Shown: positions 1 to 40,035 of the stretch, one piece after another
Numbering within the stretch: the first letter of the stretch is position 1
How the letters are laid out: each line of letters begins with the position of its first letter
Source: Chiloscyllium plagiosum
Taxonomy: Eukaryota
Assembly (NCBI RefSeq): GCF_004010195.1
Contig: NC_057719.1
Location: forward strand, 7,193,060 to 7,238,085
Reading direction: 5' to 3'
Length of the DNA: 45,026 nt
Position numbers and translations under genes: made by a program
Notes under the pieces: generated by a model
What the model was told of the DNA's origin: nothing
Seen by the model: the letters and a program-made list of their open reading frames with translations, nothing else
Database searches by the model: none

Positions 1-157
1 TGAGGCGTTGGGGGCCGGGGAGACGGAAGTCTTGGAGGAGGTGGAGGGCGTGGGTGGTGTCTTGAACGTATGTGGGGAGTTCCTGGACTAGGGGGGATAG
101 GACAGTGTCGAGGTAGGTAGAGATGAGTTCAGTGGGGCAGGAGCATGCTGAGACAAT
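1..157 (-). mobile_element. Penelope-like element reverse transcriptase fragment (cut by the window start)
   Basis: Minus strand translates IVSACSCPTELISTYLDTVLSPLVQELPTYVQDTTHALHLLQDFRLPGPQRL, the PLE RT region that follows the RPIVS motif. Confidence 0.85.
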
Positions 158-618
158 TCCATGGTGTATACTCTCCCTGTATTGTTCTGTTCGTGTCCCT
201 AACCTACTGTAACCTCCAGTGAAAGGAATGTATGTTAATTTTAATTTTCATTTGTTTGTGGAATAAAGGCATCATTTGCATGTCAGAATTTACTGCCCAT
301 CCCTAAATATCATTGATGGGTGAAAGAGGGGCAATAGGATGGAGGGAGGAAGGAATGATGCTATCCTGCCAGCTAGAAGTGGCGATAGTGGTAAGTCATT
401 TTCTTGAGCTGCTGCAATGAAATTTAATCCAACAGACACTAATCCAAAAAAGAGGAATTGCAGACTTTTGCATTTCCACAATGAAGGCAAACCAAATTCA
501 GAGCTTTTCATTTGATTGTAATTATTTATTTGAAAGCTAAAGACTTCTAATAAAAGTACAACCTGTCGTGTTTGATAAGATAGATGGATAGATCCTAATT
601 GGGTAGTGGTGATAGGGT

Positions 619-898
619 AAAACAAGGACTGCAGATGCTGGAAACCAGAGTCTAGATTAGAGTGGTGCTGGAAAGGCACAGCAGGTCAGGCAGCATCCGA
701 GGAGCAGGAAAATCAACGTTTCGGGCAAAAGCCCTTCATCAGGAATAGAGGCAGGGTATCTGCATAGTGGAGAGGTTCTCCACTATGTAGATACCCTGCT
801 TCTATTCCTGATGAAGGGCTTTTGCCCGAAACGTTGATTTTCCTGCTCCTCAGATGCTGCCTGACCTGCTGTGCTTTTCCAGCACCACTCTAATCTAG
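619..898. mobile_element. Non-autonomous Penelope-derived palindromic element (family 1 pLTRs, inverted)
   Basis: 652-773 is the reverse complement of 777-898 with 4 mismatches. The left arm has an extra ~33-nt tail (619-651). Flanks TAGTGGTGATAGGG (604-617) and TAGTGGTGATTGGG (896-909) look like a 14-bp TSD. Confidence 0.9.
808..835 (+). ncRNA. Minimal hammerhead-ribozyme-like motif in PLE pLTR (mirror copy on - strand at 715-742)
   Basis: CTGATGA-A-GGGC TTTT GCCC-GAAA-CGTT: core box, 4-bp stem II with tetraloop, GAAA box, palindromic ACGT and a GTT triplet. Confidence 0.7.
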
Positions 899-3423: not shown

Positions 3424-3639
3424 AACAAAGCAGACATTGCTGGAAAAACTCAACCGGTCTGGCAGCATCTGTGGAGAGAAATCACAGTTAACGCTTTGGG
3501 TCGAGGGACCCTTCCTTAGAACACGACCTAAAACATTAACTCTGATTTCTAGCCACAGATGCTGCCAGACCTGCTGAGCTTTACCGTGAATTTCTGTTTT
3601 TATTTCTGATTTACAGCATCCGTGGTTCTTTTGGTTTTT
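3424..3639. mobile_element. Penelope-derived inverted-repeat element (family 2)
   Basis: GGTCTGGCAGCATCTGTGG..AGAAATCACAGTTAA is mirrored by TTAACTCTGATTTCT..CCACAGATGCTGCCAGACC. The minus strand has a degenerate core CTAAGGA-AGGGTC CCTC GACCC-AAAG. The right arm carries the tail extension. Confidence 0.8.
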
Positions 3640-6612: not shown

Positions 6613-6789
6613 AAAACAAAAACAGAAATTGCTGGAAAAGCCTAGCAGGTCTGGCAATATCTGTGAAGAAAAATCAGAGTTAATGCTTAAGGTCCAGTGA
6701 CCCTTCCTCAGAACTGATGGTAGCTAGAAAAATGTTGGTTTCTGAGGAAGGGTCACCGAACCTGAAACATTAACTCTGATTTTTCTTCA
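6613..6789. mobile_element. Penelope-derived inverted-repeat element (family 2)
   Basis: Arms 6664-6713 and 6740-6789 are inverted around a 26-nt spacer. The + arm contains CTGAGGA (6742-6748)-AGGGTC ACCG AACCT-GAAA (6764-6767). Confidence 0.8.
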
Positions 6790-6794
6790 TTTGT

Positions 6795-7434
6795 TGTTTC
6801 TACCATGTACAGCTGATACAATAAAAATGAGACAGTGTTCCTTCCTCCAGGACCAAGGTGCTATATGAACAAACACACACTACATGAGAGTACAGGAGAA
6901 AATGAGGACTGCAGATGCTGGAGATCCGAGTCGAGAGTGTGGTGCTGGAAAAGCACAGCAGGTCAGGCAGCATCTGAGGAGCAGGAGAATCGATGTTATG
7001 GGCAAAAGCCCTTTATCAGGGCTTTTCCAGCATAAAGTATACAGAGAAGTGCAAAACATGCAATATAGCGCAGTAATTCCTGACAAGACAAGACAATAGG
7101 CACAGTGGTGGACAAATTACAATGTAACAATGAATGATCATTAATAAAACATTGTTTTAGCAGCAATTCAAAAAGTCATCCAAAAATTGCAAATGGAATA
7201 GGGTGTTATCATACAGTGTTAAGGAGCCTGATGGCTTGGGAGAAGAAACTATTGCAGTCTGATTGTGAGAGATCAAGTGCTTCGGTAACTTCTGCCAGAT
7301 GGCAGGAGGGAGAAGAATTTGAATGAAGGATGTGTAGGGTCATCCGCAATGCTGTTGGCCTTGTGGAGGCAGCATGTGGTGTAACTGTCTGTAATGGAGG
7401 GAAGAGAGACCCCAATGATCATCTTAGCTGCTGT
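6795..7434 (-). mobile_element. Rex1/Babar-clade LINE 3' part
   Basis: AAKMIIGVSLPSITDSYTTCCLHKANSIADDPTHPSFKFFSLLPSGRSYRS...CNSFFSQAIRLLN is a typical Rex1 ORF C-terminus. Confidence 0.85.
6896..7032 (-). mobile_element. Penelope family 1 pLTR with tail and a 12-nt inverted stub, inside the Rex1 3' UTR
   Basis: Homologous to 619-742. Ends CCCTTTATCAGG, then GCTTTTCCAGCA, which is the inverse of the internal TGCTGGAAAAGC. Confidence 0.85.
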
Positions 7435-8076
7435 CAGAGCACCACAGCTATCCCAAAGCCCTGAGGGCAGTTTCACAACCCAGCAATACCATAGCCACAC
7501 AAAGAACAGGTCAGACAGAGAGGCCACCAGCAAGAGCACTATTCCCAGAACAGGACAATGGAAGCACCTCACCGCTTCAGGGAAGACATTAGTACCTACC
7601 TGGCAGCACCCGCCCCATAACCCTCCAAACCTTCCTATTCATCTCCCCATCCAGATGTCTTTTAAATGTTACAATTGTACTAGTCTCCACCACTTCCTCT
7701 GGCAGCTCATTCCATACAGGCACCACCCTCTGCGTGGAAAAGTTGCCCGTTAGGTCTCTTTTTTTATATCTTGCCCCTCTCACCTTAAACATATGCCCCC
7801 TAGTTCTGAAATCCTCCACCCCAGGGAAGAGACTTTGTCTATTTATCTTATCCATGCCCCTCATGATTTAAAAAACCTCCTATAATGTTACCCCTCAGCC
7901 TCCGACGCTCCAGGGAAAACAGTCCCAGACTATTCAACTCCTCCCTACAGCGCAAATCCTCAAACCCTGGCAACATCCTTGTAACTCTCTTCTGAACCTT
8001 TTCAAGTTTCACAACATCTTTCCGATAGAAAGGAGACCAGAATTGCATGCAATATTCCAAAAATGTACAGTAATTT
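7435..8076. repeat. Composite local duplication: inverted copy of 8657-8816 fused to a direct copy of 9043-9518
   Basis: Direct sequence comparison. It shares private variants with the 9043-9518 CR1 copy that are absent from the 27.4-27.9 kb copy, and it interrupts the Rex1 ORF. Confidence 0.85.
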
Positions 8077-8250
8077 TTGTAGGTTTTATAGTCCAAGACC
8101 GTGCAATTCCTGAACTAGGCAGTGCTGCAGCTACTCTTGGTACTCTCAACGAACATTCTGTAGAATGTGATAAGAATGGGGGATGAAAGATGGGCTTTCC
8201 TCAACCGATGCAGAAAGTAGAGATGTTGCTGGGCTTTCTTGACTATGGAA
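8063..8250 (-). mobile_element. Rex1/Babar LINE, upstream part of the element at 6795-7434
   Basis: Minus strand reads SIVKKAQQHLYFLHRLRKAHLSSPILITFYRMFVES...*FRNCTVLDYKT. Confidence 0.85.
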
Positions 8251-8262
8251 CTAAAGTACTCA

Positions 8263-9508
8263 GGTCATAGAGATGTACAGCACAGAAACAGACTGTCGGA
8301 GAAATTAGCCCAATAAAGCAGAGACCACATAAACCAGATCAGGTGAAATTGACAAGCTGTTTATTACAAGCTATATGGCTGGAAGAGAAATTGACTAGGC
8401 TGACACAGCACTGATAGTCTGTGCAGGTAGATCAGAATTGCTCTTCCTCGAGCTGAGGAAGAAGCCAGTTTTTATTATAATCCTGAACAATGAGGCTAAT
8501 TAGAAATGGGGAAAATACAATGTATCTGGAAATGGAGTAATCTAGTTACAATGATGCTAATCAGAAAACAGTTATCAGAGGATGTCCTAATTCTCTACAC
8601 AAAGCAACATCCTGACAGTATTGATGGGTTCAGAGCTTCCATTCCTCTTCGCAGGGAGGTACTAATGTCTTCCCTGAAGTGGTGAGGTGTTTCCATTGTC
8701 CTGTTCTGGGAATAGTGCTCTTGCTGGTGCCTCTGTCTGACCTGTTCTTTGTGTAGCTTTGATATTGCTGGGCTGTGAAACTGGCCTCGGGGCTTTAGGA
8801 TAGCTGTGGTGCTCTGTCATTGTTAGTGGGAGCTTGAAGAGTTTTCCCTTGTCTGCGAGTGCTGTCTAGTTTTGCTCGTCAACATGCTTGGTCCCTGCTG
8901 AGGCATTCTGGATGTTTTTGCTATAGTTTGGCCAATTTTGCTTTTGTGGGCCTATTATAGGCTGGCAGGGTGGCACATCGTTTCCCACACAGACCCTTAG
9001 GTCCAACTCATCCATGCCAACCAGATATCCCAACCTCATCCCACCTGCCAGCACCCGCCCCATAGCCCTCCAAACCTTCCTATTCATCTACCCATCCACA
9101 TGCCTTTTAAATGTTACAATTGTACCAGCCTCCACCACCTCCTCTGGCAGCTCATTCCATACAGGCACCACCCTCTGCATGGAAAAGTTGCCCGTTAAGT
9201 CTCTTTTTTTAATATCTTGCCCCCTCACCCTAAACATATGCCCCCTAGTTCTGAAATCCTCCACCCCCAGGGAAGAGACTTTGTCTATTTATCTTATCCA
9301 TGCACCTCATTTTAAGAATCTGTATAAGGTTACTCCTCAACCTCCGACACTCCAGGGAAAACAGCCCCAGCCTATTCAACCTCTCCCTACAGCGCAAATC
9401 CTCCAACCCTGGCAACGTCCTTGTAACTCTTTTCTGAACCCTTTCAAGTTTCACAACATCTTACCGATAGGAAGGATACCAGAATTGCATGCAATATTCC
9501 AAAAGTGG
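8263..9508 (-). mobile_element. CR1 LINE 3' fragment, split by a solo LTR
   Basis: 8263-8293 (GTCATAGAGATGTACAGCACAGAAACAGAC) joins 8995 onward (CCTTAGGTCCAACTC), matching the uninterrupted copy at 27358. RT motif KLERVQKRVTRTLPGL. Confidence 0.9.
8294..8989 (-). mobile_element. Solo LTR (696 bp) of an LTR retroelement or ERV
   Basis: TG...CA termini with imperfect inverted ends TGTCGGAGAAA / TTTCCCACA; exact 5-bp TSD CAGAC (8289-8293, 8990-8994); on the minus strand a TATA-like TATAATAAAA near 8475 and AATAAA near 8360. Confidence 0.8.
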
Positions 9509-9518
9509 ACAGTAATTT

Positions 9519-10515
9519 CTAAATGTGTGAGATTGGAAAGTGTCCTTGTTCCTAGCAAACTGAAAACTAGCATGCAGATGCAGCAAGCAACCCAGAAAGG
9601 AGATGGTATAATCGCCTTATCACAGGAGGATTTGAGTACGGGAGCAAAGAAATCCTACTTCAACTTCGAGAATACTGGAGATTGCACTTTGAGTATTGTG
9701 TAAAGTACTGGTCCCCTTGCTGAAGGAAGGGTGTACTTGCCGTAGAACAAATTCAGTGGAAGCTCACCAGAGTTTTTAGATTAGTTTCCCTACAGTGTGG
9801 AAACAGGCCGTTTGGCCCAACTAGTCCACACCGACCCTCCGAAGAGTGACCCACCCAGATCCGTTTCCCCTCTGACTAATGCACCTAACACTATGGGCAA
9901 TTAGCATGGCCAATTCACCTGGCCTGCACATCTTTGGATTGTGGGAGGAAACCAGAGCACCCAGAGGAAACCGATGCAGACATGGGGAGAATGTGCAAAC
10001 TCCACACAGACAGTCACCCAAGGCTGGAGTCGAACCCGGGACCCTGGTGCTGTGAGGCAGCAGTGCTAACCACTGAGCCACTGTGCTGCCCTTCATAGAA
10101 TGGTGGAACTGTCCTATGAGAAGAGATTTAGGGGAGTGAACCTGTATTTTCTAGAATTAAAAGAATGAGAGTTGATTTCATATAAACTTGAAAAATTCTT
10201 AAAAGATAACCAAAAGTAGATGCAGAAAGAATGGTTCCCTGGATGTGAGTATTAGAACCAGGAGCACTGACTCCAAATAAAAGGCAAGTCATTAAGGACT
10301 GTGATGAGGAAAAACTACTTCAGTCAGAGATGTGAAGTTTTGCAATTTGGCACTCCCTGGTACTGTGGTAATTCAGATCATTGATAGGTTTCTAGTTTGC
10401 AATCACATCAAGGGGAATGTGGAGAACAGGGAATGTGGCATTGAGATAGTTGATCAGCTATGATATATAATGGAGGAGCATGCTCATGGAACTGAACAGC
10501 CTGTTCCTCCCATGT
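9519..10515 (+). mobile_element. Old CR1 LINE, split by the HE1-type SINE
   Basis: GAGTATTGTGTAAAGTACTGGTCCCC and AGGACTGTGATGAGGAAAAACTACTTCAGTCAGAG motifs plus a 3' UTR ending CAGCCTGTTCCT. Confidence 0.75.
9773..10091 (-). mobile_element. HE1-type V-SINE (tRNA head, V domain, CR1/HER1-like tail)
   Basis: Minus strand: GGGCAGCACAGTGGCTCAGTGGTTAGCAC (A box), GGGTTCGACTCC (B box), V domain GTGTGGAGTTTGCACATTCTCCCC...GGTTTCCTCCCAC, and a tail GGCCTGTTTCCACACTGTAG shared with CR1 3' ends. Confidence 0.9.
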
Positions 10516-14570: not shown

Positions 14571-14635
14571 TAAGTCCTGCTCACAAAGTGATCAAACATT
14601 CAACATAAAATATAAGTAACTGTCCCAGATTGCTG

Positions 14636-14789: not shown

Positions 14790-17095
14790 GGCTCATTAAA
14801 AACCAGGAGTTGAAGGAGATCATTTGGCCCTTTGAGCCTGCCCCATCATTGTGTTGATCATTCAACTCCATACCCTATTTCTCCTTTCTCTCTCTACTCT
14901 TTGATCCCCCTGGTTATAAGAATTATATCTAACTCCTTCCTGAAAACATTCAATGTCTTGGCCTCACTACTTTGTGGTAGAGAGTTCTGCAGGCTCACCA
15001 CACTGAGCCATGAAATTTCTCCTCATCTTGGTCCTAAATGGCCTCCCGTATATCCTTAAACTGACCCTGGTTCTGAACCCATTTCATCAGAAAAATTTAC
15101 TGTTAGAATTTGACAGGTTTCTATGAGAACTCCTCATTCTTTGGTAGATATGGTCCAAACAGATCAGTCTGTCTTCATACATCAACCTTACCATCCCAGG
15201 AATCAGTCTGGTAAACATTTGTTGCACCCCTTCCACAGGCAAAACATCCTTCCTCAGATAAGAAGACCAAAACTGCACACAGTATTCCAGGTGGTCTCAC
15301 CGGAGCACTGTAGAATTACTGTAAGATTTCCTTGCTTCTGTACTCAAATCTTATCACTGTGAAGGCCAACGTGCCAGTTATGGCTTGCTGCACCTGCATG
15401 CTTATTGTCTGCACCAGTTGTACAAGGGCATCCACTTCTCTTTGTACCTCCCTTTTTCGTAAACTATCGCCATTCAGATAATCTGCTGCCTTATTTCTGC
15501 CACAAAATTACATAATCTCACAGTTATGCACATTAAATTTTATTTACCATGCATTTGTCCACTCTCACATCATGTTCAAATCACACTGAATCGTATCTTT
15601 GCAAGTCACCTTCCTTCTCAGCCTTGCGTTGTTTGCAAACATCGAGGTAGAGTGAGTGGGGGAGGGGATGAAGGTGATAGGTCAGGGAGGAGGGTGGAGT
15701 GGATAGGTGGAAAAGAAGATAGGCAGGTAGAACAAGTCATGGGGACAGTGCTGAGCTGAAAGTTTGGAACTAGGGTGACTAGGAGGCGTCCAGTCTCCCC
15801 AATGTAGAGGAGACCGCATCGGGAGCAACGGATACAATAAATGATATTAGTGGATGTGCAGGTAAAACTTTGATGGATGTGGAAGGCTCCTTTAGGGCCT
15901 TGGATGGAGGTGAGGGAGGAGGTGTGGGCGCAGTTTTGCAATTCCTGCGGTGGCAGGGGAAAGTGCCAGGATGGGAGGGTGGGTTGTAGCGGGGGCGTGG
16001 ACCTGACCAGATAGTCATGGAGGGAACGGTCTTTGCGGAAGGCGGAAAGGGATGGGGAGGGAAATATATCCCTGGTGGTGGGGTCTTTTTGGAGGTGGCG
16101 GAAATGTCGGCAGATGATTTGGTTTATGCGAAGGTTGGTGGGGTGGAAGGTGAGCACCAGGGGCGTTCTGTCCTTGTTACGGTTGAAGGGGTGGGGTCTG
16201 AGGGCGGAGGTGCGGGATGTGGACGAGATGCTTTAGAGGGCATCTTTAACTGCGTGGAAAGGGAAATTGCAGTCTCTAAAGAAGGAGGCCATCTGGTGTG
16301 TTCTGTGGTGGAACTGGTCCTCCTGGGAGCAGATACGGCGGAGGATTGGGAATACGGGATGGCATTTTTGCAAGAGGTAGGGTGGGAAGAGGTGTCATCC
16401 AGGTAGCTGTGGGAGTCAGTGGGTTTGTAAAAAATGTCAGTGGCTAGTCGGTCATCATTAATGGAGATGGAGAGGTCCAAGAAGGGGAGGGAGGTGTCAG
16501 AGATGGTCCAGGTAAATTTAAGGTCAGGCTGGAATGTATTGGTGAAGTTGATCAACCTCCACGCGGGAGCACGAAGTGGCGCCAATGCAGTCATCAATGT
16601 AGCAGAGGAAGAGGTGGGGAGTGGTGCCGGTGTAATTACGGAAGATCTACTGTTCTACATAGCCAACAAAGAGACAGGCATAGCTGGGGCCCATATGTGT
16701 GTCCATGGCTACCCCTTTGGTCTGGAGGAAGTGGGAGGATTCGAAGGAGAAATTGTTAAGGGTGAGGACCAGTTCGGCCAAACGAATGAGAGTGTCGTTG
16801 GAAGGGTACTGTTGGGGACGTCGGGAGAGGAAAAAACTGAGGGCTTGGAGGCCCTGGTCATGGCAGATGGAGGTGTAGAGGGATTGGATATCCATAACGG
16901 GCATCAGTGTTTAAGAAGCATGATTTCCCTTTCATAAAATTGTGCTGGCTTTTTTCAGGCCTGTCTCTATTTTACACACGTTCTCCTACTAAATCTTTTA
17001 TAATGCACTCTAGCATTTTCCCTGAGACTGATGTGAAGCCAACTGGTCCATAATTCCCTGTTTTCTCCCTACCTCCTTTTGTTTAAATAGTAGAC
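14790..17095 (-). mobile_element. Old CR1 LINE (14790-15643 and 16896-17095) interrupted by a Penelope-like element
   Basis: QFWSSYLRKDVLPVEGVQQMFTRLIPGM ORF; KFAND-like GTTGTTTGCAAAC at the junction; an upstream NY.PV..TSV-like motif at ~17025-17055. Confidence 0.75.
15644..16895 (-). mobile_element. Penelope-like element, RT plus GIY-YIG pseudogene (frameshifted, internally deleted)
   Basis: MDIQSLYTSI, QTKGVAMDTHMGPSYACLFVG, YIDD (16590-16601), LPFLDLSI...IFYKPTDSHSYL and IIYCIRCSRCGLLYIGETGR motifs in successive frames. Confidence 0.95.
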
Positions 17096-18535: not shown

Positions 18536-18890
18536 GGGGTGGCGGTGGCGGTGTAGTGGTGACATCACTGCTGGAAATGTGTTGCTGGAAAAGCGCAGCA
18601 GGTCAGGCAGCATCCAGGGAACAGGAGAAGGGGGGAGGGGAAGTGAGGAAACTGGTGAAATCCGAGTTCATCCCTTGTGGTTGGAGGGTTCCTAGGTGGA
18701 AGATGAGGCGTTCTTCCTCCAACCGTCGTTTTGTTGTGGTCTGACAATGGAGGAGTCCAAAGACCTGCATATCCTTGGTGGAGTGGGAGGGGGAATTGAA
18801 ATGTTGAGCTACAGGGTGGTTGGGTTGGTTGGTTGACTTACAGCCCCAAACTAATGTTCTGACCACATGGATCGAATCCTACCTCAGCTT
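18536..18890 (+). mobile_element. tRNA-derived SINE head (family B) split by a PLE
   Basis: GGTGGCGGTGTAGTGGTGACATCACTG (A box), then after the insertion GACT...CTAATGTTCTG..ACATGGATCGAATCC (B box). Confidence 0.6.
18571..18834 (-). mobile_element. Penelope family 1 fragment: GIY-YIG C-terminus fused to the distal pLTR (hammerhead region deleted)
   Basis: TNQPNHPVAQHFNSPSHSTKDMQV...RLIFHLGTLQPQGMNSDF, nearly identical to the ORF at 34597-35085. Confidence 0.9.
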
Positions 18891-22910: not shown

Positions 22911-23494
22911 ACTACTGCAGAGAGAGAAACTGAGTTAATGATGCAGACACAGAACTTACTTCAGATCTGTAAAGGTGTTGTTTGAAGTATTAATATCGTC
23001 AGAACATACATTGCTTTGTATTGCTGTTCTTGGCCTCTCTTGCATGTTATAATCAAACTATTTTAAAATTTTAGTAAGTTTAGAATTTGGAAACTTCATG
23101 CTTAATTGTGAAAAGGCCAATTGCAGTTTGTAGAAAATCTAAAGGTGCCTCTTGTTTTGTTTTTCTATTGTGAAATTATTTAATGTATTTTGTGTATTAA
23201 TTTGTGATATTTTCAGGTATTTAATTTTACTGTTGAGCATGTATATCATATAAATAGACTTCACACCATAGTTTGTATAAATGTTGGGAAGTGTTGGAGT
23301 AAACTGACTTAATGTCATTTCAATTTGAAGCTATTTAATAGTGATCTGAGAGAATGTTTCATTGTCCAATAATTTTTTTAAACTAAAATTTTGTTTTGGG
23401 TGTTAAGGGGAAATAATGATAGATCAAAGCTGCAGTGTGTGAAGTACATAATACAGTTGTAATCTTTGTTGAGCTAAACTGTTAATGGACACTG

Positions 23495-26810: not shown

Positions 26811-27233
26811 TCCAACATAAAGGCTGCATAATTGCAAGTTATTGTAGCCGCATGTGAAAGCCATTTGTGGTTCATTTGCTTGAGTTTACTGCTTCATGCT
26901 TGCTGACTGGTATCTGTGACACTCAACAGGTGTATTATTAGATGTTGGAATTTAATCTCGTTTTTGTTCAGTAAATAGTAATTCAAATTAAAGTGAAGAA
27001 AGCAGATATGCATGAAGGTCTAAAAACTTTAAAATATCATTATACCTTCAAAATTACTCCTCTTTGCAACCATCTACAGAGTGACTTTAACCTCTGGCTT
27101 GTCTGCTGCCAGTGGAAGTGTTTGGAAGTACAAGCTTTCAGAGTGCTGTTCCTTTGTCAGCGAATTACCTGACAAAGGAAAAGCGCTCCGAAAGCTTGTA
27201 CTTCCAAATTAACCTGTTAGACTATAAGCTGGT

Positions 27234-27327
27234 TTTCCTGATGAACGGCTTTTGTCCGAAACATCGATTTTCCTGCTCCTCAGATGCTGCCCGACCTGTT
27301 GTGCTTTTCCAGCTCCACTCTAATCTT
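27234..27327 (+). mobile_element. Solo Penelope family 1 pLTR nested in the family 3 element
   Basis: Exact 14-bp TSD GACTATAAGCTGGT (27220-27233, 27328-27341); CTGATGA at 27238-27244 and GAAA at 27258-27261. Confidence 0.9.
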
Positions 27328-27348
27328 GACTATAAGCTGGTGTTATAG

Positions 27349-34383: not shown

Positions 34384-34556
34384 CATTTTATTCTGTATTG
34401 GGCATTACTAGGCTCCAGAACACAACTAAAGAACACACAAACTCATTGTTCACTGCAACTCAACAGGGAGGTTTTATTCCATAGATGTGCACCCTAGAAG
34501 AGCTCAAAACAAGCTGAGAAATTTGCTTCATCAGTTTGACTCATCTCTTAAAGAGG

Positions 34557-35328
34557 GGAAAGTGCGGCCTACAGATGCTGGAGATCAGAGCTGAAAATGT
34601 GTTGCTGGAAAGCCGCAGCAGGTCAGGCAGCATCCAAGGAGCAGGAGAATCGACGTTTCGGGCATGAGCCCTTCTTCAGGAGGTGTGGAGGTGCGGAGGT
34701 GCAGGTGAATTTGTTCCATATTCGCCACAAATTCACCTGCACCTCCACACACATCATTTACTGCATCCGCTGCACCCGATGTGGTCTCCTCTATATTGGG
34801 GAGACAGGTCGCCTACTTGCGGAACGTTTCAGAGAACACCTCAGGGACACCCGGACCAACCAACCCAACTACCCCGTGGCTCAACACTTCAACTCCCCCT
34901 CCCACTCCACCAAGGACATGCAGGTCCTTGGACGACTCCATCGCCAGACCATAGCAACACGACGGCTGGAGGAAGAGCGCCTCATCTTCCGCCTAGGAAC
35001 TCTCCAACCACAAGGGATGAACTCTGATTTCTCCAGTTCCCCCTTGTCTCAGTCAAATCCCTCAAACTCAGCACCGTATTCCTAACCTGCAATCTTCTTC
35101 CTGACCTCTCCGCCCCACCCCCACTCCGGCCTATCACCCTCACCTTGACCTCCTTCCGCCTATCACATTTCCAACGCCCCTCCCCAAGTCCCTCCTCCCT
35201 ACCTTTTATCTTAGCCTGCTGGACACACTTTCCTCATTCCTGAAGAAGGGCTCATGCCCGATACGTCGATTCTCCTGCTCCTCAGATGCTGCCTGACCTG
35301 CTGCGCCTTTCCAGCAACACATTTTCAG
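34557..35328 (+). mobile_element. Penelope family 1 element: inverted pLTR + GIY-YIG domain + pLTR
   Basis: Exact 17-bp TSD CTCATCTCTTAAAGAGG (34540-34556, 35329-35345). Open IIYCIRCTRCGLLYIGETGRLLAERFREH...QPQGMN. Hammerhead-like cores at 34652-34679 (-) and 35240-35267 (+, GAAA mutated to GATA). Confidence 0.95.
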
Positions 35329-36044
35329 CTCATCTCTTAAAGAGGCATTGTCCCAGCATAGCATGCTCAAAACAACAGAGGTGGCTAGTTGGGATTGAAT
35401 GGCCTTTGCTATAAATTAATCAATGTAATGTAAACCCAATTGTTTTCCATACAAGCATTAATTAGTTCGTACCACCTTTCAGGACTGGTTTTCAGGTATG
35501 TCATTACAAGTATCAATGAGGAAGATTGGCATTTGTAAGTCAAAATATGGAATAATATGCAATACACTGTGGAAAAGCCACTTGTGAAATAGAATCTAGA
35601 CACCAGATTCATGGACTTGTAAATTCTACCCTCATTTAACTATCTACTGTCATTCTCATTATCAATATCACATGAAGAATGCTAATGTAACATGCTTCCT
35701 TCCTGTAACTTGTAACCCTCTTTTTCTAAAGTTTTTTTGTCTCATTCCTGCACAGAGGGAAATAATTGAAATAGATATTAAACCTCATCAAGAGTGGCCT
35801 TTGCTAAATTTGAGAGAAATAAATTTGTGTCTATTTTGGGAAAATGTAACTTTTTATCCACTTTTTTTCTCTGGCCATGTGCTGCATGCTTCAGAGTCCA
35901 AGAAAGAAGAATGGATGCTGGCACTCTGAAATTAGAACACAAATTCTGGGAATTCTGTGTCTGTGGGCAAGGTGCTGCCAAACTTAATATTTCAGCATTT
36001 TTGCTTTTATTTGCACTAAAGAGCTTTTATAAAGAAAATACATG

Positions 36045-38866: not shown

Positions 38867-40035
38867 GCAATCAGTGACGAGTGGTGTGTTGGAACCACGT
38901 TTATTGACAATTCATAGCGATGATTTAGAGTTGGGGACCATGGTGTAGGGTGTCAAACTTTGCAGAGGAACGTAGATACATTGAATGAGTGGGCAAAGGT
39001 CTGGCAGATGGAATACAATGTTAATAAATGTGAAGTCATCCATTTTGGCAGGAGTAACAGTAAAAAGGATTATTACTTGAATGGTAAAAAGTTGCAGCAT
39101 GCTGCTATGCAGAAGGTCCTGGGTGTCCTTGTGTATGAATCATAGAGCGTTGGTCTACAGGTACAAGAAGTAATTAGGAAGGCAAATGGAATTTTGTCCT
39201 TCATTGCTAAATGGATTGAGTTTAAAGACAAGATTATGTTGCAGATGTACAGGGTGCTGGAGTACTGCATGCAGTTTTAGTCTCCTTACTTGAGAAAGGA
39301 TGTACTGGCAGTGGAGAGGGTGCAGAGGAGGTTCACTAGGTTGATTCTAGAGTTGAGGGGGTTGACTTATGAGCAGAGATAGTAGACTGGAATTATATTC
39401 ATTGGAATTCAGAAAAATGGGGGGATTTCTTATTGAAACATATAAAATTATGAAGGGAATAGATAAGAGGGAGTAGAGAGGATGTTTCCACTGGCAGGTG
39501 AGTTTTAGTCTCCTTACTTGAGAAAGGATGTACTGGCAGTGGAGAGGGTGCAGAGGAGGTTCACTAGGTTGATTCTAGAGTTGAGGGGGTTGACTTATGA
39601 GCAGAGACAGTAGACTGGAATTATATTCATTGGAATTCAGAAAAATGAGGGGGTATCTTATTGAAACATATAAAATTATGAAGGGAATAGATAAGAGGGA
39701 GTAGAGAGGATGTTTCCACTGGCAGGTGAAACTATGACAAGAGGGCACAGCCTCAAGATTAGAGAGAGCAGATTTAGGACTAAATTGAGAAGGAACCTCT
39801 TCACCCAGAGGGTTGTTAATCTGTGGAACTCCCTGCCAGTGAAGTAGCTGACGCTACTTCAGTAAACGTTTTTAAAGCTAAGGTAGATTTACTTTGAACA
39901 ATAAAGGAGTTAAGGGATACAGTGAGAGAGTGGGTAAGTGGATCTGAGTCCATGAAAAGATCAGCTATGATGTAACAGAATGGTGGAACAGGCTCGAAGG
40001 GCCAGATGGCCTACGCCTGCTCCTAGTTCTTGTGT
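38867..40035 (+). mobile_element. CR1 LINE fragment
   Basis: LQRNVDTLNEWAKVWQMEYNVNKCEVIHFG and a 3' UTR ending GATGGCCTACGCCTGCTCCTAG. Confidence 0.92.
39273..39728 (+). repeat. Tandem duplication, 2 x 228 bp, inside CR1
   Basis: 39273-39500 and 39501-39728 both run AGTTTTAGTCTCC...CACTGGCAGGTG with only a few differences. Confidence 0.95.

Follow-up and report, generated by a model that had tools for sequence, protein, structure and literature searches.

The near-perfect palindrome at 652-898 of the window (the whole stretch of 45,026 nucleotides analysed here) is, judging from its sequence, the hammerhead-bearing end (pLTR) of an EN+ Penelope-like element (PLE). When all readings of it as an integration product are taken together, such an origin is very probable. 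The single account that we favour, with somewhat more than even confidence, is that of a one-off, heavily 5'-truncated EN+ PLE insertion, built at integration by twin priming and head-to-head joining.

The inverted arms, at 652-773 (left, element sense on the minus strand) and 777-898 (right, element sense on the plus strand), are 122 bp long each and surround a 3-nt loop, GGT, at 774-776. They mismatch at four sites (675/875, 698/852, 750/800 and 762/788), all of them transitions and one a CpG-type change, and Met-started frames within 604-909 reach at most 14 aa; arm length, mismatch number, loop and lack of coding sequence were all as originally described. The loop differs by one base from the next three letters of the family, as read from a loose-end consensus behind position 754 that was obtained from DNA run X9 and drawn from a related subfamily, and is probably templated rather than filler. 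When folded as plus-strand RNA, 600-915 reached -258.4 kcal/mol (z -30), a stability equalled by none of 100 shuffles, with 121 of the 122 arm pairs formed, three of them as G-U. In this predicted structure, the ribozyme core would be masked by its own complement, as had been proposed. For the minus-strand hairpin, three A-C mismatches and one G-U pair are inferred.

A tail was present on the left arm only, at 618-651 (34 nt, in line with the approximately 33 nt reported before). It may begin at 613/614, which would give 38-39 nt with the ambiguous bases; in this longer form (614-651, minus strand) it aligns with the tailed copies at 6899, 29573 and 34552, with 613-617 assignable to either target or element. 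The minus-strand tail is pyrimidine-rich, and the family consensus past it ends in TAG, which gives the distal start site of reverse transcription the look of a splice acceptor. The flanking target-site duplication (TSD; plus strand) comprises 604-617 and 896-909, which are identical at 13 of 14 positions and match exactly over 10 bp (604-613 and 896-905). Among 400 trials with random flank pairs, a 14-mer with at most one mismatch occurred once and an exact 10-mer five times. The duplication that had been predicted is thus present, yet its length of 14 bp holds in part: the right copy overlaps the right arm by 3 nt (896-898) and 613-616 fit the family's own continuation past the tail (loose-end consensus from public contigs), so that it is better read as 10 exact bp plus junction microhomology, the other 4 bp being ambiguous. 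At both junctions, 3-4 nt are compatible with target and element alike.

The arm shares 82-89% identity with the pLTRs at 34566-34681 and 35232-35320, which belong to the copy at 34552-35330 and enclose a GIY-YIG remnant with a Pfam match above the cut-off; the tie of the arm to a GIY-YIG/RT element goes through this sister subfamily. The best protein relatives of the remnant bear the names of Chiloscyllium punctatum, at 85% and 80%, and of Rhincodon typus, at 64%, which makes a carpet shark the probable host; RT and GIY-YIG occur together in one relative of 902 aa. By a Cys-x4-Cys-x2-Cys linker in the proteins P0002 and P0010, the one motif used for the clade assignment, the shark element looks Neptune-type. 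The locus combines what characterizes EN+ PLE inverted-pLTR insertions, namely a GIY-YIG/RT family, a head-to-head inverted 5'-truncated copy, a one-sided tail of 30-40 bp and a TSD. Family alignment and motif positions are therefore in agreement with the original prediction, in which a tailed inverted-pLTR structure bears one minimal hammerhead per strand. A MITE or foldback DNA transposon was rejected on account of the one-sided tail, the PLE homology and the variable structure. Apart from the palindrome, the window holds broken remnants of PLE RT and endonuclease at 15640-16907 and at 14-157 (minus strand); such remnants were 80-86% identical to P0002, and 14-157 was 54% identical to P0010.

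The predicted minimal type I hammerheads lie at 711-746 in the left arm (minus strand) and at 804-839 in the right arm (plus strand). In the former, CUGAUGA starts at 742 and the predicted cut falls at 715/714, as numbered after PMC4209133. In the latter, CUGAUGA (808-814) is followed by an extra A (815), helix II (816-827) and the remainder at 828-836, with GAAA (828-831), CG and UU (834-835), and a predicted cut at 835/836. Core boxes, extra base, helix II and palindromic positions 15.2-16.2 of a minimal type I motif were all found, but helix I, inspected by eye, comprises 2-3 pairs and a U-U mismatch compared to the 4-5 bp expected, and the hammerhead fold differs from the predicted minimum-energy fold. 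An Rfam search returned 12 matches at E <=5, all under the gathering score and miRNA-like on hairpins, and no hammerhead. The NUH rule permits U at the cleavage position, and the GTT found there was consequently rejected as the sign of a dead ribozyme. Scanning of viral contigs for the minimal-hammerhead motif gave 0 matches. The sole match in metagenome contigs (L001, 1501-1524) has the same 24-nt motif with unrelated flanks, possibly the PLE end of another animal, and was set aside since only the motif is held in common.

The hammerhead's 5' edge coincides with what we take to be an initiator-like sequence (801-808, plus strand; consensus YYANWYY), whose A at 804 mirrors 746 on the left arm and is a hot spot of 5' ends in the family, both in loose ends and in joints. 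From this sequence, we infer that transcription may start at 804/746. Initiators (Inr) in pLTRs have precedent among PLEs (PMC2377424, PMC3846280). The left-arm segment 747-773 (minus strand) is element sequence and lies upstream of 743-747, where 5' ends of the family usually fall.

The palindrome is real. To examine its support, four of the 24 listed public runs (DNA runs X1, X5 and X9 and RNA run X21) were compared with 380-776, covering the left flank, one arm and the loop. In X1, a contig over 380-643 contains the left junction with two differences (567 and 571) and is hence not a copy of the assembled haplotype. In run X9, from organism B, a contig over 380-635 (flank, TSD and first 18 nt of the tail) contains it with 13 differences, and run X5 has a hole at 594-605. 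As the left junction is common to organisms A and B, the insertion predates their split. A fold-back artefact of assembly or library preparation would have been compatible with direct read support that extends to the left junction and to neither the loop nor the right junction. It is hardly credible, given arms that differ at four sites, one of them CpG-type, a one-sided tail, a TSD exactly at both ends (1/400 by chance), a left junction present in contigs of two organisms and several older fold-backs of other families in the same window.

GAAACGTT is found in both arms, where GAAACGTC stands in the copies at 23490 and 34552. This GTT had been regarded as evidence that the arms were copied from one template or homogenised; as proof it is too weak, since the replacement of GTC by GTT falls at a CpG and occurs in about 19% of the family depth in X1. 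The arms, however, have four bases in common that differ from the family majority (715, 758, 759 and 765, the last three within 747-773), and the X1 family depth without the majority base is about 19% at 715, 1.9% at 758, 1.9% at 759 and 0.7% at 765. With 98-99% of the family depth differing at 758, 759 and 765, these three positions make a stronger case than GTT, and both arms were probably derived from one template. The second half of the claim became unnecessary: given that organism B differs by 4-5%, the divergence between the arms (4/122) is not unexpectedly low (P = 0.26-0.39), so that no later homogenisation is needed. An origin of the arms from different templates, followed by homogenisation through conversion between the inserted arms, would fit the position of three of the four shared minority bases, which are no more than 16 nt away from the loop; we nevertheless hold this to be quite unlikely, since the arm differences at 750 and 762 fall in the same loop-proximal stretch and the divergence is as expected for an insertion whose left junction is already found in organism B.

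With regard to the mechanism favoured here, a GIY-YIG/RT protein would nick both target strands approximately 10 bp apart, and each target 3' end would prime a cDNA on element RNA, growing inward. The tailed arm would be primed at a distal start site and the tail-less arm at a proximal site about 35 nt further in, priming being aided by the 3-4 nt of microhomology. Both cDNAs, templated by RNA of a single source copy, would halt at most 3 nt apart, and head-to-head joining would be followed by fill-in. For a PLE protein of Anolis, cutting and extension of both strands, with starts at two sites bracketing the tail, were reported in vitro (PMC11167929). The solo copies at 14633, 23490 and 27233, which have no inverted partner, end at positions that align with the tail-less end of the right arm, and this end is thus a start site in its own right. 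What speaks against twin priming is where the near-perfect symmetry of the arms falls, namely 27-30 nt farther upstream than the 5' end usual in the family. Two independent cDNAs would need a shared stop there, and a snap-back explains the symmetry more simply. In that alternative, a cDNA primed at the tail would fold back at the 3' end and be extended with itself as template, after which it would switch to the opposite target end via the 3-nt TAG overlap. The 3-nt loop and the four minority bases common to both arms agree with it, as do the joints 709/746 and 711/746, which have 1-2 shared letters, and self-priming has been proposed for Penelope junction palindromes (PMC3846280). Conversely, it does not predict that the tail-less end coincides with solo-copy ends, the commonest joints (713/746 and 714/746 among the best 15 listed) have no shared letters, and long spacers between inverted arms, such as one of 556 bp, would require an extra step. 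Twin priming is favoured, and the snap-back is considered rather unlikely, while being the stronger of the other accounts.

Eight loci of the family, including the palindrome, were found in the window, a count that leaves out four weak matches of a related family (3438, 3558, 29122 and 42183). None of the other seven has the palindrome's fold-back: two have an inverted partner at different breakpoints (6899 and 34552), four are solo ends and one is a fusion with an endonuclease fragment. The locus at 34552-35330 follows the same plan, with a tail, an inverted arm, a 556-bp spacer holding the GIY-YIG remnant, a sense arm and a 17-bp TSD. Over 34540-35345, this longer member also retains a 3' UTR and shows a short purine-pyrimidine palindrome at the inverted junction (34691-34750). 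At 6899-7032, a tailed inverted arm is followed by a 12-nt sense remnant, near the recurrent joint 674/746 (seven contigs per DNA run). At 18566-18833, the pLTR portion begins about 2 nt past the predicted cut and is fused directly to an endonuclease 3' fragment. Of the seven other short arms in the window, six stop at positions matching 743-747 and the seventh near 712 (by eye).

Other hammerhead-type families in the window likewise form fold-backs, with spacers of 8, 20 and 26 nt. These were taken from a survey of 11 candidate regions, in which 12330, 28880 and 42100 (arms <=23 nt) went uncounted and 7432-8819 proved to be a different repeat. A second hammerhead family is represented at 27121-27345 by 40-bp arms around an 8-nt loop, its tail having been hit by a solo copy of the first family with a 14-bp TSD. 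Two older fold-backs of a third family, at 3427-3600 and 6614-6800, have spacers of 20 and 26 nt, and in both of them one arm begins at the hammerhead's 5' edge. Further repeats in the window comprise an inverted 171-bp pair (7432-7602 and 8652-8819, 1049 bp apart), a 1.44-kb direct duplication of LINE-like 3' ends (7595-8093 and 9040-9535) and a 228-bp tandem pair with 98% identity (39273-39728).

The family is very abundant in the three DNA runs, with 85,044, 87,306 and 100,696 contigs. In X1, depth fell from 26.3 million at the family peak to 18 thousand at 772-776 (<0.1% of the peak). At 765, the family base accounts for 99% of the depth, and the base of the palindrome for at most 0.7-1.0%. 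Expressed in single-copy flank depths, the depth without the family base at this position was about 45, 13 and 19 (X1, X5 and X9) compared to the two arms present here, a crude measure that includes other letters and gives no copy number, being a ceiling that leaves room for a few copies. Among the 15 best-supported joints (68 more lie beyond these, and some X1 and X9 joints are uncounted), 12 change strand, at 12 different position pairs, and none lies at 773-776, although a fold-back at 776, the query end, could have gone unnoticed in the 129, 83 and 121 contigs overrunning the ends. Three joints that go back along the same strand (695 to 625, 746 to 662, and 751 to 619 with 30 letters between) indicate short head-to-tail pLTR tandems elsewhere in the genome, in which tandem hammerheads could dimerise as in retrozymes.

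These counts bear on the original prediction of a minimal, self-propagating non-autonomous unit (an 'inverted retrozyme'), an element that is transcribed whole as a hairpin and re-inserted as a palindrome. The excess depth at 765 would allow such a unit at low copy number, and a family fold-back joint (709/746) was seen in nine RNA reads, with nine different starts, which shows that some inverted family copies elsewhere are transcribed. The fold of the palindrome, however, recurred in none of the seven other window loci and in none of the 12 strand-change joints listed, and depth over the loop was below 0.1% of the peak. The locus flank (380-603) had zero depth in X21 and 13 of 14 of its reads at 765 carry the family base, a weak sample of 2% of one run, and the insertion is old, its left junction being common with organism B. 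Self-copying is thus very unlikely; loop position and arm length, whose recurrence it had called for, differ between copies, both in the window and among the best 15 joints listed. In addition, read-through RNA would form a 122-bp hairpin that masks its single sense hammerhead, which would also be without a dimer partner, so that no cleavage would follow, while a transcript starting internally would contain one arm only and yield ordinary solo copies. The palindrome would accordingly have no easy route to copy itself.

The joints elsewhere in the family follow a pattern. Among the strand-change joints listed, one end lies at 742-746 in 77 of 78, 54 of 57 and 60 of 63 contigs in the three DNA runs, and the other end at 709-714 in 65, 42 and 48 of them, 40, 20 and 24 being at 713-714. 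These counts come from the 15 best-supported joints of runs that share loci, and one locus may give several contigs. Solo 5' ends pile up at 745-746 (1055, 831 and 1142 contigs at 746), the latter being the A of the initiator-like sequence, and the joints at 713-714 sit at the first bases past the predicted cut, with no microhomology. Tentatively, the fold-back junctions of the family could be a fossil map of template RNA 5' ends, produced by transcription start and by hammerhead cleavage in vivo. If so, minimal PLE hammerheads would cleave in vivo and the cleaved RNA would serve as template, something that RNA-seq in Anolis did not detect (PMC11167929), and both arms would be run-off cDNAs. 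This reading is doubtful: 714 is absent among the 24 loose-end rows listed, and helix I complementarity offers a snap-back account for the joints at 709-711.

Regarding expression, the RNA data represent 2% of one single-cell poly(A) run, a weak sample in which the left flank (380-603) had zero depth. Reads matching the family, on both strands, numbered 2,720, and 98% of them continue into other sequence. No claimable signal of A-to-I editing was obtained in X21: A>G and T>C changes were found at 33 and 18 places, compared to 18-19 and 5-6 in the DNA runs, but transversions were also raised (A>T 13 vs. 3-5; G>T 15 vs. 7) and the reads come from many loci. A host gene was sought by comparing 121 of the 134 non-repeat open frames of at least 55 aa with Pfam, the 13 others being PLE frames scanned earlier or frames overlapping those; this gave three weak matches, none convincing, and no host exon.

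Taken alone, the palindrome locus matters little, PLE stumps of this sort being very numerous. Considered together, these stumps could be informative: junction counts could separate twin priming from snap-back, and could show whether minimal hammerheads cut in vivo.

The architecture of an inverted truncated PLE copy with a tail is already published. In the portions available of PMC3846280, PMC8557442 and PMC2377424, complex EN+ PLE insertions likewise have head-to-head inverted pLTRs and a tail at one end, with a tail of 30-40 bp, a TSD of 8-10 bp, a palindrome at the inverted junction and variable arms, as seen here. Unlike them, the present locus has nothing between the arms, no ORF and almost exactly symmetric arms. 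Within the open-access literature, no account of the present shark family, or of junctions peaking at a hammerhead cut site, was found, and PMC12910113, PMC8969392 and 10.1101/2024.12.14.628481 contributed no decisive point. The hammerheads match those of metazoan PLEs in core boxes, the extra base after A9, the G-C opening helix II and the palindromic ACGU for helix III, and differ in a helix II of 4 bp, a very weak helix I and a U at position 17 (PMC4209133). The same source, in the text accessible, mentions no shark minimal hammerhead, and describes a 2-bp helix I in D. virilis and, in Schistosoma, pairs of minimal hammerheads about 100-700 bp apart on opposite strands.

The Poseidon element PAc of Anolis resembles the scheme proposed here in having two start sites of reverse transcription that bracket the tail and in extension of both target strands; it differs from the Neptune-type-looking shark family in clade, and inverted products were not reconstituted in what PMC11167929 reports in its available part. 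Non-LTR retrozymes are likewise non-coding, hammerhead-bearing, PLE-related and of similar size (PMC7229834; 10.64898/2026.07.22.740005, both in part). They consist of direct tandem repeats with two hammerheads on the same strand, from which a monomer is freed for circularisation. The palindrome, in contrast, has one hammerhead per strand, both masked, and lacks the two or more direct tandem units with same-strand hammerheads that define such elements. Abundant retrozyme-like RNA was not apparent either, as 2% of one poly(A) run, a library type blind to circles, contained no reads specific to the locus. Nor was the uniform structure over many loci of a hairpin or MITE-like family seen (0/7 window loci and 0/12 listed joints, which leaves room for a handful of copies). 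Finally, for inverted Penelope copies in Drosophila, dsRNA was considered possible and siRNAs were mapped to the inverted regions, as far as the available text of PMC3681739 goes; by analogy, dense short fold-backs would be a plausible source of dsRNA in shark transcripts.
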